Part shown: positions 4,059 through 63,435 of the stretch, piece after piece | How the letters are laid out: the number at the start of each line of letters is the position of its first letter | How positions within the stretch are numbered: the first letter of the stretch is position 1 | Assembly: GCA_040273995.1 (NCBI GenBank) | Contig: JBELYP010000006.1 | Span: 314 to 64,313, forward strand | Origin: Arthrobacter sp. | Lineage (GTDB): Bacteria > Actinomycetota > Actinomycetes > Actinomycetales > Micrococcaceae | Length of the DNA: 64,000 nt | Direction of reading: 5' to 3' | The notes under the pieces: generated by a model | Database searches by the model: none | What the model was told of the DNA's origin: nothing | The model's input: only the letters and a program-made list of their open reading frames with translations | Position numbers and translations under genes: made by a program

Positions 4059-5627
4059 CTAGCGCGCCGGAGCGGCATCCTCAATGTCCTCGTCTTCGAT
4101 GCCCAGGATGTCCAGCTTGCCGCTCTTGCGGTCTGCGAGGTACTTCTTCATCTCCCGCTTGATCACCGGCAGCATCAGGTACACACCGAGCAGGTTCACA
4201 AATGCGCAGATGAACAGCGCAGCATCGGTAAAGGAAATGACCTGGCTGAAGGAGAGAATGCAGCCGGCCACGGTGAAGGTTAGGAAGATGACCTTGTACG
4301 TGATTTCCCGCTTCCGGCCCCGGCCGAAGAGGTACTCCCAGGCTTTGAGCCCGTAGTAGGACCAGGTGATCAGGGTGGAGTAGGCGAACAGTGCGACGGC
4401 GACCGCCAGCACGACCGGGAACCACGGCAGCACGGTGGCAAACGCATCGGAGGTGAGAATGACGCCGTCGGGAGCACCGCCGCCGCCCTGCACCTGGTCG
4501 ATGCCGGCCTGCAGGCTGGGTGCTCCGGCCATGATGATGGCCAGGGCCGTCATGGTGCAGATCAGCACCGTGTCCACCAGCGGCTCAAACATGGCCACGA
4601 AGCCCTCGCTGACCGGGCGGCGGGTCTTGACCGCGGAGTGGGCGATTGCGGCGGAACCGACGCCGGCCTCATTGGAGAAGGACGCCCGCTGGAAACCAAT
4701 GATCATCACGCCGAGGATTCCGCCGGCGAAGCCTTCGGGACGGAACGCACCTTCGATAATCGCACCGAAGGCAGCGGGGATGTTCTCGAAGTTCGCGGCG
4801 ATGACCGCACCGCAGGCGAGGATGTAAACCGCAGCCATGGCCGGAACCAGCTTGGAGGTGGTGGAGCCGATGGACTTGATGCCGCCCAGGATGACTACGG
4901 CAACCAGGACGGCGAGGATGACGCCGAAGACCAGCGCGGCGCCGTCCGAACCCAGGAACCCTTCCTCGCCGCCGGTCGCGTTCCGGACCTGTGCGAAGGT
5001 CTGGTTGGCCTGGAACATGTTGCCGCCGGCCACGCCGAACAGCAGGATGGCCACTGCGAAGATCCCCGTCAGTACTTTGGCGGGCAGCGAGCCGAAGCGC
5101 TTGAAGGCCACCGGCAGGTATTTGAACGGCCCGCCGCTGACTGTGCCGTCCTCGTGGACCTGACGGTATTTGACGCCCAGGGTGCATTCGGCGAATTTCG
5201 TGGCCATGCCCAGCAGCCCGGCCAGGATCATCCAGAACGTGGCGCCGGGCCCGCCGAGCGCCATGGCTGCGCCGACGCCGGCGATGTTGCCGAGTCCCAC
5301 CGTTCCGGAGAGCGCGGAGGTCAGCGCATGGAAATGCGGTACTTCCCCGGGGTCTTGTTTGGTGGAGAACTTGCCGCGGACCACCTCCACGGAGACCTTC
5401 AGCCCGCGGAACTGGATGAATCCGAAGTAGCAGGTGATCACAATCCCGGCGATGATCAGCCAGGCCACAACAACGGGAAAGCTGAAGTCCCCGATGGTCA
5501 GCGGGAAGAAGACGAGGTCATTGAACGCAGTCGCAATGGGTTCCATGAAGTTGTTGACGGATGTGTCGATCGAGCCCAGCAGGCCCTCCGGCTCGGTCTG
5601 CGCAGGCACGCTGATGCTGCGGCCCAT
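4059..5627 (-). CDS. Alanine/glycine:cation symporter (AGCS family)
   Basis: GTVGLGNIAGV, GGPGATFWM and FSNEAGVGSA motifs. Confidence 0.92.
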   Translation of the reverse strand: MGRSISVPAQTEPEGLLGSIDTSVNNFMEPIATAFNDLVFFPLTIGDFSFPVVVAWLIIAGIVITCYFGFIQFRGLKVSVEVVRGKFSTKQDPGEVPHFHALTSALSGTVGLGNIAGVGAAMALGGPGATFWMILAGLLGMATKFAECTLGVKYRQVHEDGTVSGGPFKYLPVAFKRFGSLPAKVLTGIFAVAILLFGVAGGNMFQANQTFAQVRNATGGEEGFLGSDGAALVFGVILAVLVAVVILGGIKSIGSTTSKLVPAMAAVYILACGAVIAANFENIPAAFGAIIEGAFRPEGFAGGILGVMIIGFQRASFSNEAGVGSAAIAHSAVKTRRPVSEGFVAMFEPLVDTVLICTMTALAIIMAGAPSLQAGIDQVQGGGGAPDGVILTSDAFATVLPWFPVVLAVAVALFAYSTLITWSYYGLKAWEYLFGRGRKREITYKVIFLTFTVAGCILSFSQVISFTDAALFICAFVNLLGVYLMLPVIKREMKKYLADRKSGKLDILGIEDEDIEDAAPAR

Positions 5628-5708: not shown

Positions 5709-5724
5709 GGTGCGGGCGGGTGCG

Positions 5725-6984
5725 TCAGGGCACGACGGCGGGAGACGCTGCCAGGTGGGCCCTCACTTCGTCGGCGGCGCGGCGGCCGGTCACGACGGCG
5801 CCCTCCAGCGTTCCCGGGAACGCGTCGGAGACGTCCCCGCCGGCAAGCGCGAATCCCGTGCTCTCCGGGAGCCCCGCCGCCAGGGCGGCGGTGTAACCGA
5901 CGGGCGGGGCGAGCCAGGTGCCGCGGGCCCAGGGATCGGCGCTCCAGTCATAGCTGAAGTGTGCCCGCACCCGAGCATCCGGGAGATAGGTACGGATCCC
6001 GGCTTCAAGCTCACCGGCGTCCGGCACCCCTTCGGCCGCCGGCGCAAGCCCGACAGCCAGCGTCCCGCCGTCGGGCAGGTGCGCTTCGGTGCGAAAGTAG
6101 CCAAACGGCCCTTCGGAGGCGAAGACCCGGCAATGCCCGGTGATCCCGTCGAGCACGAACCAGTCCTTCCGTGACGCACCGGGCTGGCCGCCGGACAGGA
6201 AGGGGGCCAGCGGACCGAGCAGGTCCCCAGGCACCGTGATCTCCTTTAGGGTATTGAGCGGCACGGCCAGCACGACGGCGCGGGCTTGGAAGACTTCACC
6301 GCCTGCGTGGACCGTGTAACCGGCAGCGGTGCGGACGATGTCCCGCACCGGCGCCTCGAGGTGCAGGCGGGCTTCGGAGCGGCCCAGCAGCCCGGCGGCG
6401 AGGACCGCCGTCGTGCCGCGGATCTGGCTGCGGTAGTGCTCCGGATCGCGGAGTTCAGTGGAGTCCAGCAGCAGGTGGGCCGCGTCGAGGTCCTCCAGCG
6501 GCGCCCCGGCCAGATAGCGCTGCGTGGCGGCATGCCAGTCCCGGATGTCCGGTGCCAGTCCAGCCTGCTCCAGGACGGACTGGGCCGTGGCCGGCTCCCC
6601 GGCGGAGAGGTTTTCCAACAGTTCCAGGCTTCCCGTGAGGGCGGCGTCGTCCTGCGGGTACTGCTGGGCCCGGATGCCGCTGCGGAAATGCGTCAGGTAG
6701 CGGTCCGCGGCCGGTGAGTCGTACAGGTCGAGCCCGAGTTCCCGGACCAGCGAGCGCGTAGTGTCGAAGCCGGGCAGCAGCCAGGTGCCGCCCAGATCGA
6801 TCATGCGGTCCGCAGCGGGCCAGTACCAGCCGAACGCCCTGCCGCCTATCCGGGTGGACGCTTCGACGACGTCGACCCTCAGACCGGTGCCGCGCAATTT
6901 GTCTGCGGCAGCGAGACCGGCGAGGCCGGCCCCAACAATGACTACGTCCGTGTGGACTCCAGCGTCCGTGCCGGGTGCGCCCAT
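5725..6984 (-). CDS. Flavin monoamine oxidase family protein
   Basis: VVIVGAGLAGL, EASTRIGGR, DLGGTW and a C-terminal GTLEGAVVTG. Confidence 0.88.
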   Translation of the reverse strand: MGAPGTDAGVHTDVVIVGAGLAGLAAADKLRGTGLRVDVVEASTRIGGRAFGWYWPAADRMIDLGGTWLLPGFDTTRSLVRELGLDLYDSPAADRYLTHFRSGIRAQQYPQDDAALTGSLELLENLSAGEPATAQSVLEQAGLAPDIRDWHAATQRYLAGAPLEDLDAAHLLLDSTELRDPEHYRSQIRGTTAVLAAGLLGRSEARLHLEAPVRDIVRTAAGYTVHAGGEVFQARAVVLAVPLNTLKEITVPGDLLGPLAPFLSGGQPGASRKDWFVLDGITGHCRVFASEGPFGYFRTEAHLPDGGTLAVGLAPAAEGVPDAGELEAGIRTYLPDARVRAHFSYDWSADPWARGTWLAPPVGYTAALAAGLPESTGFALAGGDVSDAFPGTLEGAVVTGRRAADEVRAHLAASPAVVP

Positions 6985-50297: not shown

Positions 50298-51353
50298 TCA
50301 GATTCCGCTGTGGATCTGCCGTATAATTTCCAGCCCGCGCAGGGACTGGGCCGGGCCAACCGGCAGTTCCTGCCCGTCCAGGACGGCAGCGGCCAGACCC
50401 GCGTAGAAATCCTGGTATCGCCCTGCTTCGGTGGGCACCGCCGTGCTGGAGCGGTCCGTTCCCAGCAGCCCCCAGGCAGCCACGTCCTCGGCACCGAACC
50501 CAGGATCTCCCGGCCGCATCCCGGCGTCCAGCTGCGCTTCCTGGGGATCCGTGCCGCGCTTCACCCAGGCCGCGTTGGAGCCGGTTACCCGGAACCGCTG
50601 ACCCGTCTGCGGAGCCAGCGAATTCATCGTCAGGTGGGACAGCACGCCCGAGTCATGCTTGAGCACCGCAAAGACGTCATCGTCCGGCCCGCCGTTCTGG
50701 CGCCTCGCCCGCACTTCGGCATAGACCGGTTCGGCCGGCCCAAAGAGCTGCAGTGCCTGGTCGATCAGGTGCGGGCCGAGATCGAAGAGGATCCCGCCGC
50801 CGTCGTCCGCTCCGGCCTGGCGTTTCCAGGCCTTGGCAACGGCAGGCTTGAATGATTCCATCCGCGACTCGAAACGGGTAACCGTCCCCAGCTCGCCGCG
50901 TTCAAGCAGCCCCTTGAGCGTCAGGAAATCTCCGTCCCAGCGCCGGTTCTGGAAGACGGTCAGCACCTGGCCTGCCGCGGCAGCCGCATCCATCATGCCG
51001 CGCGCGGCCTCTGGTGAATGCGCGAAGGGTTTGTCCACGACGGCACCAAGCCCTGCTTCCAGCACCGCCAGGCCCAGCGGTGCGTGCGTTGCGGGCGGGG
51101 TGCTGATGACGGCCAGATCCAGGTCTGCGGCCAGATCCAGCGCGGCCTCGGCGGAAGGCACGACGGCGGCGGCCGGGTACGCGGCTCGGGCGGCTGCAGC
51201 GCGTGCCGGGTCAGAGGTAACGATCACGTCCAGCGAGTACCGTGGATCCGCTGCCAACAGCGGAGCATGGAAGACCCTGCCGCCGAGCCCGTAACCGAAC
51301 AGGACGGTCCGGAGGCGGCGGCCGCTGCCGGTTTCCCGGCGTTCGGCGGTCAT
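50298..51353 (-). CDS. Gfo/Idh/MocA family oxidoreductase
   Basis: GYGLGGRVFHAP, VVDKP, FQNRRWD and DLGPHLID. Confidence 0.92.
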   Translation of the reverse strand: MTAERRETGSGRRLRTVLFGYGLGGRVFHAPLLAADPRYSLDVIVTSDPARAAAARAAYPAAAVVPSAEAALDLAADLDLAVISTPPATHAPLGLAVLEAGLGAVVDKPFAHSPEAARGMMDAAAAAGQVLTVFQNRRWDGDFLTLKGLLERGELGTVTRFESRMESFKPAVAKAWKRQAGADDGGGILFDLGPHLIDQALQLFGPAEPVYAEVRARRQNGGPDDDVFAVLKHDSGVLSHLTMNSLAPQTGQRFRVTGSNAAWVKRGTDPQEAQLDAGMRPGDPGFGAEDVAAWGLLGTDRSSTAVPTEAGRYQDFYAGLAAAVLDGQELPVGPAQSLRGLEIIRQIHSGI

Positions 51354-52087
51354 GACGCCTGGAAGTGTGTTTGTGCGGGTGACCCGTTGAGCTTGGCCAC
51401 GATTTCACCGGCCAGCACCTTCAGTTTGAGGTTCCGGCTGTTGGAGGCACGCTTGAGCGTTTCGAAGGCCTCGCTCTGGGTACAGCGGTTCTGGCCCATG
51501 ATGATGCCAATGGCCAGGTCAATGTCCGTCCGTGACTGCAGCACACTCTGCAGGTCATCCACGGTGGACGCACGCTGGGACATCCTCACCGCCAGCCGCA
51601 GGGCCAGCGAGGCTTCCTGGGCGTAGGTGCGTGCAACCCGCTTGAAATCGTCATCGAAGGTGTTGGCGGAGCGGGAGTACAGGTTCAGTGCCGCGCGCGC
51701 GTGCCCCTCTAGCGTCAGCGGCACCGCGTAGATGGACCGCATGCCCTGGGTCATGACGTGCTGCATGTATTCCGGCCAGCGCTCATCGGCGGAGGTGTCC
51801 GGCACATCCACTGCTTCATGGACCCGGAGCGCGTGGAGACACGGACCGTCGTCGAAGGCGTACTGCATTTCATCCATTTCCAGCGCGGCGCTTTCGCTGG
51901 AAGCGACCGTGTAGCTGTGCCCGCGCGAACGCTGAAGGGTGATGCCGCAGTACACAGTTCCCCGCGAAGACAGGGACGAGGCGCTGAGCCTCGCGAGCTG
52001 CTGGAGGAACTCCAGCACGTCCTCATGATGTATCAGCAGGTCCTGCAGCTGTGCTGCGGTGGCAGTCGCAGTCCTCAGGTCGTCCAT
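51350..52087 (-). CDS. GAF and ANTAR domain protein
   Basis: DEMQY..DGPCL and RWPEY (GAF); SRTDIDLAIGIIM...AFETL..AS..RNLKL (ANTAR). Confidence 0.9.
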   Translation of the reverse strand: MDDLRTATATAAQLQDLLIHHEDVLEFLQQLARLSASSLSSRGTVYCGITLQRSRGHSYTVASSESAALEMDEMQYAFDDGPCLHALRVHEAVDVPDTSADERWPEYMQHVMTQGMRSIYAVPLTLEGHARAALNLYSRSANTFDDDFKRVARTYAQEASLALRLAVRMSQRASTVDDLQSVLQSRTDIDLAIGIIMGQNRCTQSEAFETLKRASNSRNLKLKVLAGEIVAKLNGSPAQTHFQAS

Positions 52088-52223
52088 GGTGCACTGTTCC
52101 TTTTTCCAGCCCCGGTGAACCGCAGTGTGCGCCCACGATTGTCGGGTCAGAGCTTAGATACTACGATATCCGGATACGGTCAAGACGCGGCCATGGCTTC
52201 TGCACACCCTTACGGAGTTATAG

Positions 52224-52415
52224 ATGGGCCTGCCGGCGCACCTGCCGATCTGCCACCATTGCGGCGTTGACGATTACCTGATCTACGAGTTCTACACAGC
52301 TCCAGCCGGAAACGATCCCGGCGTCGTGAGCTATACATGTTCCGCGTGCGAAACTTTCGCCGGGCACGAAGTACCCGCCGGCTGGTCTCCTCCCGGGTGG
52401 CGCGTTGGGCAATGA
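52224..52415 (+). CDS. Small zinc-ribbon-like protein
   Basis: CHHC and CSAC pairs; GGAG RBS. Confidence 0.6.
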   Translation: MGLPAHLPICHHCGVDDYLIYEFYTAPAGNDPGVVSYTCSACETFAGHEVPAGWSPPGWRVGQ

Positions 52416-52824
52416 GTCAACGCCTCCGCTACCCGGAGGACTTGCCCTGCTGCTGGGCGCAGCTGCCCACCTTTCTGCCGAAGCCTCGAGGATGTTCCTC
52501 GCAGACCTGTCTCTGAACGAGAACTCCGTAAGAGTCCTGAAAGAGCTCTCTGCCCCGGGGATGCCCTCGGCACGCGTGGCCCAGCGGACACGGCTGAGCC
52601 TCGAGGAGGCTTCCTTTGCCCTGGCATCGCTGCACCAGGCAGGGTACGCACGGTCCCGCCGTCCCGGACGCTGGACGCGGACCGCCTCCGGAACAGCGAT
52701 GGTGGAACACCTAGCCGTGGTCCGGAAGAACTGTGACGCCCGCGCCGGGGAAACTGAGCTCCGACAGGCCCTCTACACGCTGATTCGCACGCTGGAGGAC
52801 GAGGGCAGTCCGGAGCGGGCGTAG
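52405..52824 (+). CDS. MarR-like winged-helix protein
   Basis: LNENSVRVL...RVAQRTRLS...LASLHQAGYA...WTRTASG pattern; TTG start uncertain. Confidence 0.55.
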   Translation: MGNESTPPLPGGLALLLGAAAHLSAEASRMFLADLSLNENSVRVLKELSAPGMPSARVAQRTRLSLEEASFALASLHQAGYARSRRPGRWTRTASGTAMVEHLAVVRKNCDARAGETELRQALYTLIRTLEDEGSPERA

Positions 52825-52838
52825 GGCGGACAGACGGC

Positions 52839-52875
52839 GGCGGGCCCGGAACAGCACTGCTGTTCCGGGCCCGCC
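52839..52875. terminator. Terminator-like hairpin between convergent genes
   Basis: GGCGGGCCCGGAACAGCA / TGCTGTTCCGGGCCCGCC. Confidence 0.75.
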
Positions 52876-52903
52876 GTCTCGTCAGGTCAGTTGATGCCAG
52901 CTG

Positions 52904-55120
52904 CTATGCGGCTGACACCGGGAACCGCTCCCACACGCGGTGCTGGCCGAGCAGGGTAACCAGGCCGGGCACCAGCTCATCCGGGGATTCAACCAGGATG
53001 CCCGGTGCCTCCTGGGGAATCCCGGACGCTCCCAGCACACCGGCGCCGCTGCCCCAGGCACCGAGCGCCTTCGAGTGGCGGTAGGCCTCCGTGAGCAGGA
53101 TGGCCACCCGCGGGTCGACCGCGGGGTGCCCGGACGGGTTCCCTGCCTTAGCGTCCAGGCTGTCCACTGCATCGATGCCGTATTCGCCAGAACCGGCGAC
53201 GATTACGGCGTCGAATTCCGTTGAGCGCGCGGTCAGGTACGTGCGCTGGACCGGAATCTGGCCGCCCAGCATCCCGCCCTGCGGGGCGATGACGAGCGGA
53301 ACCATGTCTGCCGCATCAACTGCGGCACGAATCCGGGCCAGGGCCGCGAGGTCCGTGCTGCCGTCGGCGAGGATGCCCACAATCCGGCCATCCACCGGCC
53401 AGGTGCCTCCTACCTGCTGGAGGGCAGGGCTCGGCTCGGTGTCTTCGACCTTCAGCGACGGAGCCGGTGCAGGCAGGCCGAGGCCTGCTGCCACTTCGGC
53501 GCACAGCCGTTCGTCAATGTTCGCGAGCGCCTGGAGCTGGCGGACCTTGATGTTCTCCTCGTAGCACTTGCCGAGTTCGAACGTGTAGGCCTGGATCACG
53601 TGGTCCTGTTCCACCGGGGTCAGCGAACGGAAGAACTGCCGCGGCTGGCTGTAGTGATCGCCAAACGTGGCCGGGTTCTCCCGGACCTTGCGGGACTTGG
53701 CCACCGGCGCCGGCACATCGATGAAGGCTCCCATGTCCGCTCCGGCGAGGAAGGGGCAGCCGCCGTCCAGCGAATTGGGCTGGTAGGGAGCCACTCCGCT
53801 GTGCACGGCATCCTGGTGGAAGCCGTCGCGGAGCATGTCGTTCACCGGCGCGTGGGGCCGGTTGATGGGGATCTGCGCGAAGTTGGGTCCGCCGAGGCGG
53901 GTGAGCTGGGTGTCGATGTAGGAGAACAGCCGGCCCTGGAGCAGCGGATCGTTGGTGACGTCGATTCCCGGGACCAGGTGGCCGGGGTGAAAGGCCACCT
54001 GCTCGGTTTCGGCGAAGAAGTTGGTGACGTTCCGGTTCAGCGTCATGGTGCCGATGATCTGCACCGGAGCCAGTTCCTCGGGCACGATCTTGGTGGGATC
54101 CAGCAGGTCGATGCCCTCGAACATCTCATCCTCGGTGTCCGGGAAGACCTGCACGCCCAGGTCCCATTCCGGATAGGCACCGGCTTCGATGGCGTCTGCC
54201 AGGTCCCGGCGGTGGTAGTCGGGGTCCATGCCGTTGATGATCTGCGCTTCTTCCCAGACCAGGGAATGCACGCCAAGGCGGGGCTTCCAGTGGAACTTCA
54301 CCAGGGACGTCTCGCCCTTGGCGTTGACTACGCGGAAGGTATGGACCCCGAAGCCCTCCATGGTGCGGTAGGAGCGCGGGATGCCGCGGTCCGTCATGTT
54401 CCACATGGTGTGGTGCTGTGCTTCGGTGTGGAGCGAGACAAAGTCCCAGAAGGTGTCGTGTGCACTCTGTGCCTGGGGGATTTCCCGGTCCGGGTGCGGC
54501 TTCCCGGCATGAATCACATCCGGGAACTTGATTGCGTCCTGGATAAAGAACACTGGAATGTTGTTCCCCACCAGGTCAAACGTTCCCTCATCGGTGTAGA
54601 ACTTGGTGGCGAAGCCGCGGGTGTCCCGCACGGTGTCTGCCGATCCGCGCGAACCCAGCACGGTGGAGAATCGGACGAAGACGGGCGTCTGGGCGTCGCG
54701 GGCCAGGAAACTCGCCCGGGTTATGCCTTCGGCAGCACCGTTCGCCACGAAGACGCCGTGAGCGGCCGCACCGCGTGCGTGGACCACACGCTCGGGAATG
54801 CGCTCATGGTCGAAGTGCGTGATCTTCTCGCGCAGGTGGTGGTCCTGGAGGAGGACGGGTCCGCGGGGGCCGGCCTTGAGGGAGTGGTCCGTGTCCCGCA
54901 GCCGTGCGCCCTGCGCCGTCGTCAGGTAACGCCCGGACTGCGCGTTGGAGGTCTTGGGTGCTCCGGTGGGCACTCCGGTGGGAGAGACCGTCTCCGGGCC
55001 GTCCTGGTCCGGCTTCGGGGGCAGCGGTTCGTGCGGCTCCGTCGGTTCGGCGAGTGAGGGTTCCTGCGGGGCAGGGGCTCCTGGAATAGGAAGTCCGTTG
55101 GCTGATGTCTGATCTGACAT
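52904..55120 (-). CDS. katE: Large-subunit catalase HPII
   Basis: FDHERIPERVVHARG, DLVGNN, RLFSYIDTQ and an extra C-terminal domain. Confidence 0.96.
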   Translation of the reverse strand: MSDQTSANGLPIPGAPAPQEPSLAEPTEPHEPLPPKPDQDGPETVSPTGVPTGAPKTSNAQSGRYLTTAQGARLRDTDHSLKAGPRGPVLLQDHHLREKITHFDHERIPERVVHARGAAAHGVFVANGAAEGITRASFLARDAQTPVFVRFSTVLGSRGSADTVRDTRGFATKFYTDEGTFDLVGNNIPVFFIQDAIKFPDVIHAGKPHPDREIPQAQSAHDTFWDFVSLHTEAQHHTMWNMTDRGIPRSYRTMEGFGVHTFRVVNAKGETSLVKFHWKPRLGVHSLVWEEAQIINGMDPDYHRRDLADAIEAGAYPEWDLGVQVFPDTEDEMFEGIDLLDPTKIVPEELAPVQIIGTMTLNRNVTNFFAETEQVAFHPGHLVPGIDVTNDPLLQGRLFSYIDTQLTRLGGPNFAQIPINRPHAPVNDMLRDGFHQDAVHSGVAPYQPNSLDGGCPFLAGADMGAFIDVPAPVAKSRKVRENPATFGDHYSQPRQFFRSLTPVEQDHVIQAYTFELGKCYEENIKVRQLQALANIDERLCAEVAAGLGLPAPAPSLKVEDTEPSPALQQVGGTWPVDGRIVGILADGSTDLAALARIRAAVDAADMVPLVIAPQGGMLGGQIPVQRTYLTARSTEFDAVIVAGSGEYGIDAVDSLDAKAGNPSGHPAVDPRVAILLTEAYRHSKALGAWGSGAGVLGASGIPQEAPGILVESPDELVPGLVTLLGQHRVWERFPVSAA

Positions 55121-55265
55121 GTGGCCTCCATCTGATGGAACTTATTGCTGCACCGGGGCGCAGCTCCAAGACGAGCGTACCGATAAATAGTAAGGGTACT
55201 TAACATACGACCCTACGGCCTGGCCCGCTCCTGCGCAAAGGGCTTGCAGCGCGGCCGGCAACGCA

Positions 55266-55311
55266 AAGGACGGACCCGCCTGTAGGGGGGAACACAGGCA
55301 GATCCGTCCTT
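55266..55311 (-). terminator. Terminator closing the peptide operon
   Basis: Minus strand AAGGACGGATCTGCCTGT...ACAGGCGGGTCCGTCCTT. Both mismatches are G-U pairs only on this strand, and the hairpin ends in TTT. Confidence 0.6.
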
Positions 55312-55428
55312 CGTGGGGACAATGCCCCCTGCCGTCCGGGACGCCGCGCCTTTCAGCGGGCCTTGGCGTCCTGACGGACATTCTTGGTCCCGGCAGCTCT
55401 GGCCGGGCCGTTCACCGCAGTGCCGCGG

Positions 55429-55620
55429 CTACTCCCACAGGCAGTCGGCCCAGGCGGCGTCCCTCAGGTAATCCCTGGCGGGCCCTACGCTCCAGAGCTC
55501 TCCGCGTGATTCGACGTAGCCCATGCCGCGCATGTCCTCGACAGTTCCCTCGTCGCAGCCCAGGACCGTACCCAGGTCCTTGTCATCGGCAGCCAGAACT
55601 ACTTCATTCCGTTGCGACAC
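55429..55620 (-). CDS. Small acidic hypothetical protein (63 aa)
   Basis: AAGGAGG RBS before GTG 55620; MSQRNEVVLAADDKDLGTVLGCDEGTVEDMRGMGYVESRGELWSVGPARDYLRDAAWADCLWE. Confidence 0.65.
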   Translation of the reverse strand: MSQRNEVVLAADDKDLGTVLGCDEGTVEDMRGMGYVESRGELWSVGPARDYLRDAAWADCLWE

Positions 55621-55671
55621 CGTGACCGCCTCCTTACTCCGTGCTGACTCCCCCCGGTCCATCCGGGAAAG

Positions 55672-56631
55672 TTAGTGCTTATCCAGAAGCATGGCTTCAC
55701 GCTCCGTGCTCCACGTCCGTGCATACAGCCCCATGGCTGCTTCCTCGCGGAGGGAGAGCCCTAGCCGGTTGAGAAGCATGTGTGCCTGGTAGACCGTCAG
55801 ATGCTGTGCGCTGCGGCTCACGCGTGCCTTGTCTGCACGGTAGAGGTAGGTATCCATCGTGCGGAACCAGCGGCGCCGCCAGTTCTCCACGGCCGATTCC
55901 GCGGCCGTGGCTGCCATCAGCCGGTGGGTCGGCATGACCTTCGCGCCCACCTGGACCGTCATGGCCTGCCGGACGCTCGCGGCACGCGGGCCGAAGCCGG
56001 CAGTGCAGCTGCGCAGATGGCTGTCCCAGTAGTAGTCCCAGGAAAGCCGGCGGCGGTCCGGCCAGCTGGAGGCACGCGGCCCCTTCATCATGCTGCGTGC
56101 GGAATCGAAGAGCAGCAGGGAGCCAAGTGCCCAGCGGTTCTGCACCTTCGGAAACCGGGCAGTGGCCCAGGTACCAAGGTCTGAGGACAGCTCGAAGACC
56201 TCTTCCGCCAGAGCCAGCCCTTCAACTCCGCCGTACTTGGCAAGATCTGCTTCGATCCGCGGGTCCTGCTGCTCCATCCCGCCGGGACCCATCCGGTCCG
56301 AGGCGGGGTCTCCGAAGGTGTGGGTGACGGTCAGGTGCCCTATGACACCGCTCGCCTGTTCCTGAAGAGCCACCAGGAGCGACTTGAGGCGGTCCAGCGT
56401 CTCCTGGGGAGCGAGGACCTTCATTCGCACGTGGGCGTTCGCAGGCTCAGAGCAGCGGGTGTAAAACCACCGCTGCGCCCCCCATAGCTGGGCCTGCGCC
56501 GCCAGCGGGGTAACCAGTTCTCCAATGATGCCGTCCGCTACATCGAAGCCGCCGGTATAGATGGATAGTGTCCACCAATGAATGCTTGCATTAGTTCGCG
56601 AGGCGTTTCGAACTGCTGTTAGCTGGCTCAT
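55672..56631 (-). CDS. Stand-alone Lant_dehydr_C / thiopeptide-type biosynthesis domain protein
   Basis: WFYTRC, HVRMK, KYGG...AEEVF..SS and HMLLNRLG...E align with the family motifs WFFxRY, HLRLR, RYGG...AExxF and HMxxNRL. Confidence 0.8.
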   Translation of the reverse strand: MSQLTAVRNASRTNASIHWWTLSIYTGGFDVADGIIGELVTPLAAQAQLWGAQRWFYTRCSEPANAHVRMKVLAPQETLDRLKSLLVALQEQASGVIGHLTVTHTFGDPASDRMGPGGMEQQDPRIEADLAKYGGVEGLALAEEVFELSSDLGTWATARFPKVQNRWALGSLLLFDSARSMMKGPRASSWPDRRRLSWDYYWDSHLRSCTAGFGPRAASVRQAMTVQVGAKVMPTHRLMAATAAESAVENWRRRWFRTMDTYLYRADKARVSRSAQHLTVYQAHMLLNRLGLSLREEAAMGLYARTWSTEREAMLLDKH

Positions 56632-56726
56632 GGCGTTCTTCCTCCGGGTTCAAGTCTGGTTACCGCCGCTGGGGCGGGTCTAGATGTGCTGCTGGTGGTT
56701 CATCCCCCAAAAATGAGGGGCCTAAG

Positions 56727-56777
56727 TTAGAACCATTCCCAGCTCTTGATGGAAACCGGTGCAGTTGCCTTCTTCAT
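56727..56777 (-). CDS. 16-aa peptide MKKATAPVSIKSWEWF (putative precursor, signal or leader peptide)
   Basis: AAGAGGGG RBS, ATG at 56777 and TAA at 56727, followed by hairpin CCCTCA-TTTT-TGGGGG; immediately upstream of the Lant_dehydr_C gene. Confidence 0.7.
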   Translation of the reverse strand: MKKATAPVSIKSWEWF

Positions 56778-57106
56778 GTTCGTATCCCCTCTTTTAGTTC
56801 GGCTGGTTGCACAGCCGGTCGTGTTTGACTCCGAAAGCTTCCCCCGCGCCGGAACGGCCTGTCCACCGTTAGCAATTTCAGCTTCCTGTCATGTCCGTTT
56901 GGTGCCCTCGGACACGCCGGAACCCTCTGTCCGATACCTGTGATGCCCCGAAAACGTGCGGATTCCGGCATTTTGGGTACCGAACTAGCTACTGAGGGTG
57001 GACAATGGCATTAAGCTGTCATGTCATTCTCTCCGGGTTCCCAAATTGGGCCGGAACGCATTGTCGGTGAGACGGACAGCTTTCGGCATTCACTGCCGCA
57101 CGGGGC

Positions 57107-58117
57107 ATGCCTGGACTGTTCCCAGCGGCGCAGCTGGAGGAGGAAAACTTGCTCGATCAGGTGTCAGTTGACGTGTACCGCTACGCGGTCTCTCACCCGG
57201 GCTGGACCCCCGCAGAGGCCTCGGACGCACTTGGTTACACGTCGCGGGCCATTGACCGTGCGGTGGAAGAACTCCAGACCCGCTGCCTGCTCTTCGTCGA
57301 GAACGCGCAGAACCCTGTCTATACCGCCGTTTCCCCCGACGTCGCGCTGGCAGAACTGGTCGATCCGGATGAACGGGCGATGCTGGAACTCCGCGCCAGC
57401 ATCGGCGCGAAGCGGCGTGAGCTGGCGGCCCTGGTGCCCACTTTCACCGAGGCCCGGCGCCAGGTAGCTGCGGATGCCTCCGTGGAAGTCCTGGAGGATC
57501 CCGAGCAGGTGCAGCGGGTCCTGATTGAGTACGGGCGTTCAGCGTCGGAGAGCGTGCTGATTGCCAGGCCGGGGCACGGCTCTAACGCAGACTTCCAGGA
57601 AGAGAGCGTGCAGAAGGACCTGGACCTGCTCCGCGCCGGGGTAAAGCGCCAGACCCTTTACCACTCCAGCACACGGGACCACGTGCCTACCTGCAAGGCG
57701 GTGGAACGCATCAGCGAAGCTGGCGGTGAGTTCCGCACCCTGCCCTATGTGCCGCTGCGAACCCTCATTTTCGATGACAAGGTGGCCGTAGTGGCCCGCC
57801 AGCTGCACACCTATGACCGTGCGGGGCTGGTGATCCGGGATCTGAACCTCATTGGCCTCTTTACCAAGCTCTTCGAGTTCGCGTGGAGCCTGGCCGAGCC
57901 CTTCCTCGCGGACGACCCGGGCAAGCAGGGGCTCACCAGCACCCAGCGCTCAGTGCTCGCGGGCCTCGCAGCAGGACACTCTGATGAGGTCATCGCCCGC
58001 AGGGTGGGAATCAGCGTGCGGACCTGCCGCCGGCACATCGCCTGGATGCTGGAGGAGCTCAAGGCAGAGAGCCGCTTCCAGGCCGGGATCAAGGCCCACA
58101 AGGCTGGCTGGATCTAG
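57107..58117 (+). CDS. TrmB-like HTH / LuxR C-terminal transcriptional regulator
   Basis: N-terminal wHTH, central LIFDDKVAVV domain and C-terminal GHSDEVIARRVGISVRTCRRHI...SRFQAG...GWI. Confidence 0.88.
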   Translation: MPGLFPAAQLEEENLLDQVSVDVYRYAVSHPGWTPAEASDALGYTSRAIDRAVEELQTRCLLFVENAQNPVYTAVSPDVALAELVDPDERAMLELRASIGAKRRELAALVPTFTEARRQVAADASVEVLEDPEQVQRVLIEYGRSASESVLIARPGHGSNADFQEESVQKDLDLLRAGVKRQTLYHSSTRDHVPTCKAVERISEAGGEFRTLPYVPLRTLIFDDKVAVVARQLHTYDRAGLVIRDLNLIGLFTKLFEFAWSLAEPFLADDPGKQGLTSTQRSVLAGLAAGHSDEVIARRVGISVRTCRRHIAWMLEELKAESRFQAGIKAHKAGWI

Positions 58118-58162: not shown

Positions 58163-59458
58163 ATGACTTTTGAGGAAACAACGGGGTCGGTGCTGACCCC
58201 GGAAGCCCAGGCGGCGCTGGAGCGGGCCACCGGCTCAGCCCACCGGCACTACGAACTCCTTTCGGACCGCGCGTTCCATATCAAGCAGTCGGCCGTTCGG
58301 GACGTCTTTGACATTTCCATCCGGCCGGGACTCATCTCACTCGCCGGCGGCAGTCCGTACCTGCAGGAGCTGCCGCTGGATGAGCTCGCCGAGACCACGG
58401 CTTCGATCATCCGTGACCACGGCCTTGCCGCCCTGCAGTACGGTCCCGGCCAGGGCCTCCAGGAGCTGCGCGAAATGGCGTGCGAGGTCATGGCTGCGGA
58501 GGGAATCCTGAACGCTGATCCGGCCGACGTCGTCATCACCACCGGCTCCCAGTCCGGCCAGGATGTGGCCGCCAAGGTTTTCTGCAATCCCGGCGACGTA
58601 GTGCTGTGCGAGGATCCTACTTATGTGGGCGCGCTCAACGCCTTTGAGTCCTATGAAGTGGACATCCAGCTCGTGGCCATGGATGACCAGGGGCTGATCC
58701 CCGAGGCACTTGAGGAACGGATCCAATCGCTGCGCGCCGCCGGCAAAGCCGTGAAGATGCTCTATACGATCCCCAGCTTCAACAATCCCAGCGGCATCAC
58801 GCTTGCCGCAGGCCGGCGGGATGAAGTGGTGCGGATCTGCCGCGAGAACAACATCCTGGTGCTGGAGGACAATCCCTACGGACTGCTCCGGTTCGACGGC
58901 GAGCCGCTGGCGCCGCTGCGCGCGTCGCACCCCGAAGACGTGCTGTATCTGGGGTCCTTCTCCAAGATCTTCTCACCGGGGATGCGCCTGGGCTGGGCGC
59001 TGGTTCCCCGGCACCTGTTCCGCCGGTTCTACCTGGCCTGCGAGGCAGTGGTTCTCTGCCCCTCACCCCTGACCCAGATGATCACTGCGGCCTACCTGCG
59101 GGATTACGACTGGATGGGACGCATTCGGGACTCCCGCCGCCTCTACGCGGACCGCTGTGCAGCCATGCTGGCCGCACTCGAGGATCAGATGCCCGACGGC
59201 GTCAGCTGGACGGTGCCGGACGGAGGGTTCTTCATCTGGGTGAGCCTGCCGGAGGGCGTTGACACCTACCCGCTGCTGGCGGAAGCGATCGACGCCGGGA
59301 CGGTCTTCATTCCGGGCACGGCCTTTACTCCCGAAGATGAGCCCAGTTCCAGGCTGCGGCTGGCGTTCAGCGCCGTCTCGGAACAGGACATTGCCGAAGG
59401 TGTTCGGCGGCTGGCACCGGTGATCCGGCGTGCAGTCGCAGCCGCCGGAACGGCGTAG
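58163..59458 (+). CDS. PLP-dependent aminotransferase class I/II (LysN/ARO8-like)
   Basis: ISLAGG, FNNPSG, EDNPY and GSFSKIFSPGMRLGW. Confidence 0.92.
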   Translation: MTFEETTGSVLTPEAQAALERATGSAHRHYELLSDRAFHIKQSAVRDVFDISIRPGLISLAGGSPYLQELPLDELAETTASIIRDHGLAALQYGPGQGLQELREMACEVMAAEGILNADPADVVITTGSQSGQDVAAKVFCNPGDVVLCEDPTYVGALNAFESYEVDIQLVAMDDQGLIPEALEERIQSLRAAGKAVKMLYTIPSFNNPSGITLAAGRRDEVVRICRENNILVLEDNPYGLLRFDGEPLAPLRASHPEDVLYLGSFSKIFSPGMRLGWALVPRHLFRRFYLACEAVVLCPSPLTQMITAAYLRDYDWMGRIRDSRRLYADRCAAMLAALEDQMPDGVSWTVPDGGFFIWVSLPEGVDTYPLLAEAIDAGTVFIPGTAFTPEDEPSSRLRLAFSAVSEQDIAEGVRRLAPVIRRAVAAAGTA

Positions 59459-59753: not shown

Positions 59754-61196
59754 CTAGTCCAGAAGCAGGGCAGGTTCCTCCAGAATGGCCGCAACGTCCG
59801 CCATAAAGCGGGCTGAAAGGTCCCCGTCCACCACGCGGTGGTCGAAGGAGCCGCCCAGGGTGGTGATCCAGCGCGGGATCACTTCGCCGTCGAGCACCCA
59901 GGGCTTCTGCTTGATGGTGCCAAAGGCAACGATCGCCACTTCACCGGGGTTGATGATCGGTGTTCCGGTGTCGATTCCGAGGGCGCCGATGTTGGTGATG
60001 GTGAGCGTGCCGCCGCGCATGTCCGCGGGCGGAGTCTTGCCCGCCCGGGCAGTGGTTGCGAGCTCGTTCAGCGCCACCGCCAGTTCCTTGAGTGAAAGGT
60101 CCTGGGCGTCCTTGATGTTCGGCACCATCAGGCCCCGCGGCGTGGCTGCGGCAATGCCGAGGTTCATGAAGTGCTTGACGTGGATTTCGTCCCCCGCCCA
60201 GGTGGCGTTGACGGAGGGGTTCCGCGCGGCGGCCCAGATAACGGCCTTGGCCAGGATCAGCAGGGGTGACACCTTGATGCCCTCGAAGTCCCGGGAGGCT
60301 TTCAGCCGCTTGACGAATTCCATGGTCCGCGAGGCATCGACATCCACGAAAATGCTCACGTGCGGTGCGCTGAAGGCACTGTCCACCATGGCCTTGGCGG
60401 TGGCCTTGCGGACGCCCTTCACCGGGACACGCTCAATGCGGCTGTCCTGCGGCTGGCTGGAGGAGGACCAGAAGGTATCGGCCGAATCAACCTCCGACTC
60501 GCGCTGGGCCTGGTAGCTGATCAGGTCCTGCTTGGTCACCTCTCCGCCGGCACCGGTGGCGGGAACGTCGGCAAGGTTGATCCCCAGGTCCTTTGCGGCC
60601 TTGCGGACCGGAGGCTTGGCCAGCACACGCTGGACGAGCCGGTTGAAGCGGTCCTGAACGGCTGCTCCTGCGGCGGCTACGGCTGCTCCGCGCGGATCGG
60701 TCCGGGCGGCGGTCCGCGGCGCGGTGGGTTCCGGCGCTGACGGGGCTGGGTTTTCGGGCTGCTTCGGAGCGGCCGCCTCCCGGGCAGGAACGGGGCGGTT
60801 CCGGCGGGGACGCCGGCGGACGGCGTCGGCCTTCGGACCTGCGCCGGTGAGCGACGCCGAGGGCGGGGCATCGGCGTCGGCGCTTGCCGGCGTCGTTGTC
60901 TGCTGCTGTTTGGCGTTCTTTCCCGCCTTGGCAGGGGCGGGCTTCCCGACGCCTCCTGCGGGGCTCACCTGGAAGATGGGGGTGCCCACTTCAACCGTTG
61001 CTCCTTCCTCGACCAGGATCCCGCTGACCGTGCCGGCGAACGGTGAGGGAAGTTCCACAAGTGACTTCGCGGTCTCGATTTCAACGATCACGTCGTTGAT
61101 CGCAACGGTGTCACCTTCCTTAACCCGCCACTGAACGATTTCAGCCTCGGTAAGGCCTTCCCCGACGTCGGGCAGTTTGAACGTTTTATCAGTCAT
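59754..61196 (-). CDS. 2-oxoacid dehydrogenase E2 (dihydrolipoamide acyltransferase)
   Basis: LPDVGEGL...ETAKS lipoyl domain, AKPPVRK and DHRVVDG. Confidence 0.95.
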
Positions 61197-61255
61197 GGCA
61201 TCTCGATCTGGCGTGGGCCGGAGGACCGGCGGCGGAAGCTGCGGAAGGGTGGCTG

Positions 61256-62230
61256 TCAGTAGGAGAAGACGGTGTCGAGGGCGTCGAGCAGCCGGTCGAT
61301 GTCCGGCAGGTAATGCTCCTCCACGGCGGCGACTGGGTAGGGCATGTGGAAGCCGCCTACCCGCAGGACGGGCGCTTCCAGGTGCAGGAACGCGCGCTCG
61401 GCTACGCGGGAGGCGATTTCGCCGCCAATACCGCCGAAGGTGGGAGCTTCATGGGTGACGATCAGGCGTCCGGTGCGGCGTACCGACTCGGTGACGGCGT
61501 CGAAGTCGATCGGGGAAATGGAACGCAGGTCGATCACCTCGATGCTGCGGCCGTCTTCGGCGGCCGCTTCGGCAGCGGCCAGGGCCACCGGCACCAGCGG
61601 CCCGTAGGCGACGATCGTGGCGTCGGTTCCGGCACGCAGGATCTGGGCTTTGTACGGGTCGCCCGACGGCGCAGTGGTGTTCACCTCGCCCTTGAGCCAG
61701 TAGCGGCGCTTGGGTTCAAAGACGATCACCGGATCCTTGCCCTGCATCGCCTGCTGGATCATCCAGTAGCCGTCCTGCGGGCTGGAGGGAGCCAGGATGC
61801 GCAGCCCCGCGGTGTGCGCGAAGAGCGCTTCCGGTGACTCCGAGTGGTGCTCGATTGAGCCGATCCCTCCGCCGTACGGGATCCGGATGACCACCGGCGC
61901 GCTGAGGGCTCCTTCACTGCGGGAGTGCATCTTGGCCAGCTGGGTAGTGATCTGGTTGAAGCCGGGGAACACAAAGCCGTCGAACTGAATTTCGCAGACC
62001 GGGCGGTAACCGCGAAGGGCCAGGCCGATGGCGGTGCCGATGATGCCGGACTCAGCGAGCGGGGTATCCATGACACGGTCCGTGCCGAATTCCGCCTGGA
62101 GCCCTTCAGTGATGCGGTAGACGCCGCCGAGGGCACCGATGTCCTCGCCCATCAGCAGGGCCTTGGGATTTGCGGTCAGGCCGGCGCGCAGCCCGGCGTT
62201 GATGGCCTTGGCCATAGTCATGGTGCTCAT
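61256..62230 (-). CDS. 2-oxoacid (pyruvate/branched-chain) dehydrogenase E1 beta
   Basis: [21 protein letters not shown] and EHHSESPE. Confidence 0.95.
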
Positions 62231-63435
62231 GCGCCAACCTCTTCGTCATTCTCGCCGGCGGACCCGTCCGCGTCGGCAAATCCTTCTTCATACGCCTGGT
62301 GGAAGGCGAGTTCCTCGGCGATAAGCGGGTGGGGTTCGGCGTAGACATCTGCGAATGAGTCGGCGAACCACGGCGGTTCCATCGCCTGCACGTCAGCGCG
62401 CAGCTGTGCAGCCAGCTCATCCGCTTCCGCGGTAAGGGAAGCGAAGAAGGCGTCATCCCCTGCCCCGGTGGAGCGGAGGTGTTTTTCCAGGCGGGTCAGC
62501 GGGTCCCGGCCGATCCAGGCCTGCTCATCGGCGGACAGCCGGTACTTGGTGGGGTCATCAGCTGTGGTGTGGGCACTCATCCGGTAGGTGAACGCCTCAA
62601 TCAGCACCGGCCCCTTGCCGCTGCGGGCGTGTTCGAGCGCCCACCGGGTTACCGCGTGCACGGCCAGGACATCATTTCCGTCCACCCGGATGCCGGGGAA
62701 CCCGTAGCCCTGGGCGCGGTTTGCCAGCGGAATGCGGGACTGGACTTCAGTGGGGACCGAGATCGCCCAGTGGTTGTTCTGGCAGAAGAAGACCACCGGA
62801 GCGTCGTAGGACGCGGCGAAGACCATGGATTCGTGGACATCGCCCTCGGAGCTGGCGCCGTCCCCGAAGTAGGCAACGGTGGCACCGGCGGCGAGACCTG
62901 GATCGGCTGCGCTGTCCCTTGCCATGCCCATGGCATAGCCGACGGCGTGCGGAACCTGGGCGGCCAGCACAAGTGTGTAGAGATGGAAGTTTGATTCCCG
63001 CGGATCCCAGCCGCCGTGTGAGATCCCGCGGAAGCGCCGCAGCAGGTCGGAGAGCTTCAGGCCGCGGGTCAGGGCGACGCCGTGCTCGCGGTAAGTCGGA
63101 AAGACGTAGTCCTGGGCAGCCAGAGCGCGGCCTGAGCCGATCTGGGCGCCTTCCTGGCCGGTGAGCGGAACCCACATCACCAGTTCGCCCTGGCGCTGCA
63201 GGGCGGTGGCCTCCGTGTCGAACCGGCGGATAAGGAACATGTCCCGGTAGAAGGAGCGCAGGGCCTCGCCGTCGATGTCCTCGGCGTACCGGCCGTACAG
63301 CTCGTGTCCGGTGCGCTCCCCTTCCGGGGTCAGCAGCTGGACCATGCCGTCCGGCGCGCTGCCGGGGGCAGGCACCAACGTCTCATTCAGCGCCGTCGAA
63401 TCGAATTCGGTGGCGGGCAAGTGCTCCAGGGCCAT
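62227..63435 (-). CDS. 2-oxoacid (pyruvate/branched-chain) dehydrogenase E1 alpha
   Basis: GQEGAQ, TPP motif GDGASSEGD...NN and HTTADDP. Confidence 0.95.
   Translation of the reverse strand: MALEHLPATEFDSTALNETLVPAPGSAPDGMVQLLTPEGERTGHELYGRYAEDIDGEALRSFYRDMFLIRRFDTEATALQRQGELVMWVPLTGQEGAQIGSGRALAAQDYVFPTYREHGVALTRGLKLSDLLRRFRGISHGGWDPRESNFHLYTLVLAAQVPHAVGYAMGMARDSAADPGLAAGATVAYFGDGASSEGDVHESMVFAASYDAPVVFFCQNNHWAISVPTEVQSRIPLANRAQGYGFPGIRVDGNDVLAVHAVTRWALEHARSGKGPVLIEAFTYRMSAHTTADDPTKYRLSADEQAWIGRDPLTRLEKHLRSTGAGDDAFFASLTAEADELAAQLRADVQAMEPPWFADSFADVYAEPHPLIAEELAFHQAYEEGFADADGSAGENDEEVGA

Follow-up and report, generated by a model that had tools for sequence, protein, structure and literature searches.

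What does a lone protein with the C-terminal domain of a lantibiotic dehydratase do when its companions are a 16-residue peptide, a small acidic protein and a regulator? The question is raised by a locus in a 64,000-nucleotide (nt) stretch of an Arthrobacter sp. genome (GCA_040273995.1, contig JBELYP010000006.1), called the window below. A sequence-only reading of that stretch had proposed a minimal module, either for a peptide that is ribosomally synthesized and then post-translationally modified (RiPP) or for peptide signalling. The signalling half of that proposal is supported by comparison with related loci, which offer signal-like precursors, repeated cores and a regulator family found beside secreted Trp peptides, whereas a RiPP centred on serine did not hold up. 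We give even chances to the proposal that the operon and the regulator facing it form a feedback circuit for peptide signalling, with the regulator as likely sensor and with the lyase and the small protein as likely modulators. The genes concerned are as follows.

56727..56777, minus strand: gene for a 16-residue peptide with the core W-[D/E]-W, the signal-less form of a longer precursor
56786..56792, minus strand: ribosome-binding site (RBS) of the peptide gene, AGAGGGG, read from the sequence
57149..58117, plus strand: 322-residue regulator with a TrmB-like winged helix, a long helix, a PLD-like domain and a LuxR helix-turn-helix (HTH), assigned from Pfam and an orthologue model
55672..56631, minus strand: 319-residue orphan protein of the glutamyl-lyase fold, PF14028, assigned from a profile match, a model and residue mapping
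55429..55620, minus strand: 63-residue acidic protein, GTG start at 55620, RBS AAGGAGG

The short open reading frame (ORF) proposed at 56777-56727 was confirmed together with its RBS; it translates as MKKATAPVSIKSWEWF, followed by a stop. Of the genome's 2642 short ATG ORFs with an RBS, no other ends in W[DE]W followed by four residues or fewer. Our comparison used 80 loci with names, chosen as the best among 105, and all counts out of 80 or 71 refer to them. A W-[D/E]-W peptide ORF stands ahead of the PF14028 gene in 71 of these 80 Arthrobacter loci, and the other nine are paralogues that have no peptide, small gene or regulator. Each of the 71 loci with core DNA holds one to four copies of the core, always in a single frame, and the precursor at a further locus, L056, has six. 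The acidic core residues are encoded synonymously (GAC 70, GAT 14, GAA 15, GAG 9), Asp, Glu, Pro and Ser codons vary synonymously across loci, and all three stop codons are in use (39, 27 and 5 of the 71 loci). We conclude that the peptide gene is genuine and conserved, the conserved part being W-[D/E]-W. The C-terminal Ser/Trp motif singled out by the sequence-only reading therefore survives in its Trp half but not in its Ser half. Only 44 of the 71 loci have Ser or Thr ahead of the first core, and Ser is accordingly no conserved feature of the peptide; entire clades read KVWDWI, AAWDW or NWEWPK. The cores of deeper relatives are IWGWPQ (L059), IWAWPESW (L047) and IYDWPT (L044).

In 51 of the 71 loci the peptide is made as a longer precursor of approximately 43-71 residues, with a basic N-terminus and a hydrophobic stretch followed by cores, among them SWDWPK, VWDWPQ, NWEWPK and, at the terminus, AAWDW. 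Peptide ORFs in the window's own genus have 7-17 residues (for example MKSWDWF, MTTKVWDWI and MKKATAPVSIKSWEWF), and the shortest, of 7-9 residues, have no leader. We called an N-terminus signal-peptide-like by a simple hydropathy rule, under which the window peptide has no hydrophobic core and the 51 relatives do. The signal-peptide-like N-terminus has been lost in the window's lineage. In a tree of 35 chosen sequences rooted on lyases from RiPP clusters, which form one side of a 100/100 branch, the signal-less forms and the paralogues make up a 95/98 clade nested among the signal-bearing forms. A single clade of signal-bearing forms was rejected by the approximately unbiased test (p-AU 0.002), with the caveat that the outgroup branches are long. 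Locus L144 lost its hydrophobic stretch independently of the own-genus lineage.

The regulator is conserved with the short ORF, a point that the sequence-only reading had put forward for checking. Peptide and small gene occur together in 70 of the 80 loci, 65 of which also have the divergent regulator and an aminotransferase gene. In genomes where the regulator is absent nearby, it lies approximately 9 kb away behind genes for a GntP permease, an SDR protein and a TIM-barrel protein (five of five checked), and an operon that persists without its regulator was accordingly rejected. This catabolic insert between operon and regulator was seen at L208-L212, in five own-genus genomes, and a short remnant of it is retained at L140. 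The regulator is single-copy in all five genomes checked, and its start is likely the TTG at 57149 rather than the ATG at 57107. Its assignment as a TrmB-HTH/LuxR protein was borne out by two routes: Pfam matched the LuxR HTH and gave no TrmB match, and a model of a 63%-identical orthologue (predicted local distance difference test, pLDDT, 87) matched TrmBL2 at E 8e-14 as well as PLD-family domains. No tetratricopeptide repeat (TPR) family was detected in it by Pfam or NCBIfam.

The regulator family is present in 96 of 251 class genomes (full-length profile matches), and we scanned distant members with 1.5 kb flanks. Under a strict filter, a signal-peptide ORF ending in D-x-x-W occurs at 6 of 29 distant regulator loci, compared with 6 of 150 random stretches; looser inspection added three borderline cases. 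In the module the peptide core is W-[D/E]-W, and it is the small cytoplasmic protein that contains a D-x-x-W motif. This protein has a variable N-terminal part and a near-invariant C-terminal tail, R-D-A-A-W-A-x-x-x-W (R-D-x-x-W-A-x-x-x-W across 19 sequences), in which D-A-A-W resembles the ends of the secreted peptides beside distant regulators. The small gene was single-copy in five of five genomes checked, and its ratio of nonsynonymous to synonymous substitution rates (dN/dS) is 0.02-0.33 in six of seven pairs, the seventh being saturated. It is missing in L181, where the peptide is present, and in L044. An Atlas search with its homologue P0127 (68% identical) returned unnamed clusters as top matches, and a winged-helix likeness of the N-terminal part to Nu1/DUF1441 is a weak lead (DUF1441 0.91, Phage_Nu1 0.89). 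At the end of the RiPP cluster at L046, a small acidic ORF (approximately 5261-5404, plus strand) with W-A-E-A-M-W lies just ahead of a TrmB/PLD-LuxR regulator; read by eye, this motif echoes the W-A-D-x-x-W tail of the small protein.

The 319-residue protein matches PF14028 with an E value of 2.8e-18 and 67.4 bits (cut-off 24.4), which bears out its description as a Lant_dehydr_C protein; its TIGR03891 score of 40.7 is under the cut-off of 48.45. A structure model (pLDDT 89.9) matches MibB, TbtD, MadB, PbtD, NisB and TsrL about equally, with Z scores of 18.1-19.7. The best match is MibB (Z 19.7, root-mean-square deviation 3.5 over 255 aligned residues), and TbtD follows at Z 19.2, so the fold cannot tell a lyase from a pyridine synthase. 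Sequence does separate the two: the closest relatives that lie in clusters, at 35-37% identity, belong to split LanB dehydratases as their glutamate-eliminating subunit. Those relatives sit after a LanB-N gene in clusters with YcaO, nitroreductases, an M50 peptidase, an ATP-binding cassette (ABC) transporter and several Ser/Thr-rich precursors.

To read the active site, we mapped NisB positions via one cluster-bound relative, taking residue roles as given in excerpts of PMC9486935 and PMC4341554; His284 would correspond to NisB His961 by its spacing to Arg966. All five cluster lyases keep the equivalents of Tyr776, Arg784, Arg786, Arg826 (as Lys) and His961. Counts for the orphans come from 67 peptide-linked proteins, with four loci excluded for interrupted frames. 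These proteins lack the full NisB set: the Tyr776 and Tyr820 equivalents are each retained in 1 of 67, and Arg or Lys stands at the Arg786 position in 33. They do keep His284 (66 of 67, compared with 2 of 9 peptide-less paralogues), the Arg784 equivalent as Arg or Lys (57 of 67, compared with 2 of 9) and the Arg826 equivalent as Lys or Arg (64 of 67). The window's protein has His284 and has lost both Tyr equivalents; its Arg786 position is variable in the family. We had considered a loss of both pocket arginines in the paralogues, which is true of one set, but the other keeps Arg at the Arg786 position in nine of nine.

The gene is not decaying. Its dN/dS is 0.05-0.18 in seven pairs, and it always comes second, some 75-155 nt after the peptide gene. 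The peptide-less paralogues have values of 0.02-0.15 (six pairs); since they are selected even though just 2 of 9 retain His284, the PF14028 family has a role that is independent of this base. Such paralogues, most of them without the His, occur at L032-L039, L051, L147, L169-L175, L182, L199 and L204, up to three of them within 16 kb (L039). The genes around them are varied housekeeping genes, and in the five loci of one paralogue group the upstream DNA showed no short ORF that is conserved. Interrupted lyase frames or split matches at L165, L177, L179, L192, G092, G187 and G217 may be real breaks or assembly errors.

The sequence-only reading had noted no LanB-N or YcaO gene in the window, and none was found in the organism's genome (87.7% complete) either. 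A glutamylating partner acting in trans, which it had also raised, was not borne out: the PF04738 (LanB-N) profile matched none of seven single-contig module genomes and all three cluster genomes that served as positive controls. Searched by tblastn with two LanB-N proteins of related clusters' type and with YcaO, ThiF-like, nitroreductase and M50 sequences, neither the genome nor the 80 loci gave a match. A LanC search of the genome was blank, as was its control. Among fused forms of 605-2000 residues we found only two full LanB proteins at 23% identity, which is weak evidence. A complex prediction of the cognate lyase with a 30-residue triple-repeat precursor segment (L040) scored 0.00 twice with the partner fold uncertain and counts neither way.

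The intergenic regions contain the following elements, several of them conserved.

56801..56816, minus strand: 5' leader hairpin, present with sequence changes across the own genus
56836..56865, minus strand: predicted operon promoter, TGGACA, 18 nt, GAAGCT, a consensus match only, which would place the start near 56830
56883..56896, minus strand: box B, CATG[T/A]C, approximately 22-25 nt upstream of the -35 element, predicted activator site
57006..57026, no strand assigned: box A, conserved operator-like element near the regulator start, one copy per genome
56705..56720, minus strand: hairpin 1 after the peptide stop, with a C-rich arm complementary to the peptide RBS
56663..56677, minus strand: hairpin 2, a C-rich element before the lyase RBS, conserved in sequence and with no consensus fold in distant species
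55265..55312, minus strand: terminator-like hairpin closing the operon, z -6.3 (55255-55330 folded)

Box A occurs in 51 of 63 intergenic regions and box B in 59 of 63, where a few box B matches begin at box A. Box A has one match in the window's own genome and stands at the module in five of five other genomes, which gave one extra match with one mismatch and two control matches. A strict sigma-70 scan gave no promoter. The 63-residue gene and a terminator-like hairpin behind it, both claimed from the sequence, were confirmed. The hairpin that had been placed between peptide and lyase genes resolves into two small ones, but the 206-nt region taken whole folds no better than shuffled sequences (z 0.0). 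No Rfam match reached the gathering score, no consensus RNA structure emerged before the lyase RBS across 24 sequences, and no U-tract terminator was found after the peptide ORF. The C-rich stretches at 56663-56677 and 56705-56720 are conserved and complementary to the G-rich RBSs on both sides; as judged from this pairing, translational coupling is possible. RNA runs with this sequence hold it only at a small share. RNA contigs from four libraries in four studies (90-99% alike) cover 55937-56808 only, three of them ending at 56803-56808. Some bridge the peptide and lyase genes, a weak hint given that DNA carry-over is possible.

Taken together, these features fit a mechanism in four steps. 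Most species would export the precursor, trim it to short W-D-W units and take these up again; the window's lineage would keep its short form inside or let it out by another route. The genome encodes eight PF00496 peptide-ABC binding proteins, a common family and so a weak point for signalling. The peptide would then bind the PLD-like domain of the regulator, which would use boxes A and B to act on the operon as well as on its own gene, and so close a feedback loop. The PF14028 protein, presumably derived from the glutamate-eliminating subunit of a split LanB, would no longer dehydrate; its former substrate pocket may instead take up the Trp peptide, so that the protein serves as sink or co-receptor. 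That it binds a peptide and does not catalyse is plausible because MroD, which has the same fold, binds the Trp-containing C-terminal tripeptide of its substrate, as excerpts of PMC9247985 describe. Lastly, the D-A-A-W tail of the small protein may mimic the D-x-x-W peptides of the regulator family and compete at the regulator. The roles of the PF14028 protein and the small protein are the weakest steps. A fuller relay, in which a lanthipeptide/azole-peptide elimination enzyme now serves as receptor or editor for a W-D-W pheromone and hands its signal, through a small D-x-x-W-tailed protein, on to a TrmB/PLD/LuxR factor, with one lineage left with a signal-less 7-residue pheromone and an expanded receptor family, seems doubtful to us.

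Several observations weigh against the signalling circuit. The window's own peptide has no signal peptide. Under the strict filter 23 of the 29 distant regulator loci have no D-x-x-W peptide, W-D-W differs from the motif found at the others, and the sole apparent target of the regulator is this operon. The near-universal His284 and Arg826 equivalent suit catalysis as well as binding. The loci are not independent, the paralogues forming one or two clades. The proposed competition by the small protein cannot be essential, as L181 and L044 lack its gene.

A different proposal is that the W-[D/E]-W peptide is modified or processed by the PF14028 protein through a new chemistry that needs no glutamylation. 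The acidic residue might, for example, be the site of epimerisation, cleavage or isomerisation, and what results may serve as the signal. The idea stays alive through the His284 retained beside the peptide, and the contrast with the paralogues at both His284 and Arg784, the fixed position of the gene just after the peptide gene, and the repeated cores, which are typical of RiPP precursors, all speak for it. We nevertheless think it unlikely: both Tyr equivalents are gone from all but one protein each and the Arg786 position is kept in about half, core variants read W-G-W, W-A-W and Y-D-W, the 7-9-residue forms have no leader, and in 51 of 71 loci co-translational export would probably part the precursor from a cytoplasmic enzyme. 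The paralogues may point elsewhere. As many as five matches per own-genus genome, and the selection on paralogues at the nine loci that lack peptide, small gene and regulator, allow that peptide and regulator are a signalling pair while the PF14028 protein is a regulated output with another ligand, for example a decoy or immunity protein for competitors' dehydro-amino-acid or azole peptides. That the nearest cluster-bound relatives act on Ser/Thr-rich azole precursors agrees with such a role. We rate it quite improbable, as only beside the peptide do the His and Arg784 equivalents persist and the paralogues' neighbours are varied housekeeping genes.

Two further readings concern the peptide itself. 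The signal-less forms of 7-17 residues look like Trp leaders, and hairpins follow the stop, one with an arm complementary to the peptide RBS; the ORF could then be a cis-acting leader peptide whose Trp codons govern the downstream gene by attenuation or RBS unmasking. This is very unlikely, given signal-like N-termini and tandem cores in most species, a near-invariant acidic residue between the Trp residues, downstream genes outside Trp biosynthesis, and the lack of a U-tract terminator, of folding beyond shuffles and of a consensus structure before the lyase RBS. Finally, the Ser of SIKSWEWF might be dehydrated by a LanB-N protein in trans, with the PF14028 protein eliminating glutamate or cyclising the product to a pyritide. 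The fold is indeed tied among MibB, TbtD, NisB and PbtD (Z 18-19.7), and the window peptide, with two Ser and a Trp-containing C-terminus, superficially resembles MroA. With no glutamylation partner by profile in the seven single-contig genomes, where the controls worked, or by tblastn in the genome and the 80 loci, with Ser or Thr before the first core in 44 of 71 loci, and with leaderless forms of 7-9 residues, a Ser-based RiPP is largely refuted, and we leave it hardly any probability.

How does the signalling circuit that we favour compare with known systems? It is neither a split-LanB lyase system nor a pyritide pathway. Split-LanB glutamyl lyases (MroC/TbtC type and the elimination domain of NisB and MibB) share PF14028, the fold, 35-37% identity in the cluster lyases and, mostly, the His961 and Arg826 equivalents. 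The orphans differ in having no detected glutamylation partner, in the replacement of the Tyr776, Tyr820 and often Arg786 equivalents, and in a neighbouring peptide that is W-D-W rather than Ser/Thr-rich. The pyritide pathway MroABCD offers the same fold (MroD, and likewise TbtD and PbtD), but the module has no MroB/MroC pair, no leader and no conserved Ser pair; the MroA precursor, by contrast, has a leader and two conserved Ser in its core, according to excerpts of PMC9247985.

A functional parallel is the RRNPP family (PlcR-PapR, NprR-NprX, AimR-AimP, Rgg-SHP). There too a small propeptide gene adjoins a cytoplasmic regulator of 250-500 residues (here 322, divergent), and the signal-peptide-like N-terminus of most module members alongside signal-less short forms in some recalls SHP. 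Excerpts of PMC10075063 give criteria that include a propeptide of 10-100 residues, a receptor of 250-500 residues and TPR repeats. The module agrees with four of the five in those excerpts, export being suggested in relatives only; at 16 residues the window peptide is within the length range, although some relatives have only 7-9. The module is not an RRNPP member, because its candidate receptor is of the TrmB/PLD-like/LuxR type with no TPR detected. It also differs in lying in Actinobacteria (Actinomycetota) and in having two extra genes in the peptide operon. With the D-x-x-W peptides beside distant TrmB/PLD-LuxR regulators it shares the regulator family; it differs in its W-[D/E]-W core, in the orphan lyase and D-A-A-W-tailed protein of its operon, and in the loss of the signal in one lineage.

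The range of the family suggests where the parts came from. We found 144 protein relatives; the 120 listed are 49-97% identical and, where named, almost all from Arthrobacter. Matches to the PF14028 protein occur in 83 of 401 genomes of the organism's family and in all 27 sampled from the genus, with up to five each. Outside the family there are strong matches in 3 of 400 class genomes (approximately E 1e-74) and one in 279 order genomes of other families (E 5e-22), and each of the four belongs to a RiPP cluster that has a LanB-N-like gene. As these genome sets are samples, the range reads as not found beyond this in those searched. Across 64 loci, pairwise identities of lyase, regulator and aminotransferase correlate at 0.94-0.97 throughout, and therefore show shared descent, not co-evolution. 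The simplest order of events is that the lyase was separated from a split-LanB cluster, came together with a regulator and a secreted W-D-W precursor, and in the window's genus saw the signal lost and paralogues expand. In cluster L046 a regulator of the same family lies 0.6 kb after the lyase, an arrangement that suggests how the parts of the module met.

Other features were noted along the way. Complete azole/dehydro-peptide clusters, with an ABC transporter, YcaO, nitroreductases, several Ser/Thr-rich precursors, an M50 peptidase and a split LanB, occur in Micrococcaceae and a distant family (L052/L045 in G068, L053/L046 in G021, L092-L094, L055 in G353, and L218); their products may belong to the dehydrazoles. 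Small signal-peptide-like ORFs lie between such RiPP clusters and their SARP-type or two-component regulators (L093 14086-14283, L094 5691-5888, L045 near 5710-5907), and two of them end in N-D-K-W-I. A contig titled Vibrio cholerae (L192) carries a module of the Arthrobacter type, in which peptide, small gene, regulator and aminotransferase are all present, and is probably a mislabelled or contaminated record. The window itself has these neighbours.

58163..59458, plus strand: pyridoxal phosphate-dependent aminotransferase, a conserved neighbour within 4 kb in 67 of the 80 loci and a possible member of the module
50298-55120 and 59754-63435: a Gfo/Idh/MocA oxidoreductase, a GAF-ANTAR protein, a large catalase and what we take, from its appearance in sequence, to be a 2-oxoacid dehydrogenase E1/E2 operon

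We found no paper on this module in searches of the open-access literature. Lone PF14028 genes are annotated as lantibiotic dehydratase fragments, and genome-mining tools would misread them. Here a RiPP tailoring enzyme has stayed under strong selection after losing its obligatory partner, and it would be either a pseudo-enzyme that binds peptides or the catalyst of an unknown reaction of a well-studied fold. In the text available from PMC10075063, Actinobacteria are described as signalling mainly through enzyme-made small molecules. Because this locus is chromosomal, vertically inherited and present in Arthrobacter that can be cultured and are non-pathogenic, with a single-copy regulator and small gene and a candidate ligand as short as seven residues, it offers a clean way to test for peptide signalling in Actinobacteria.

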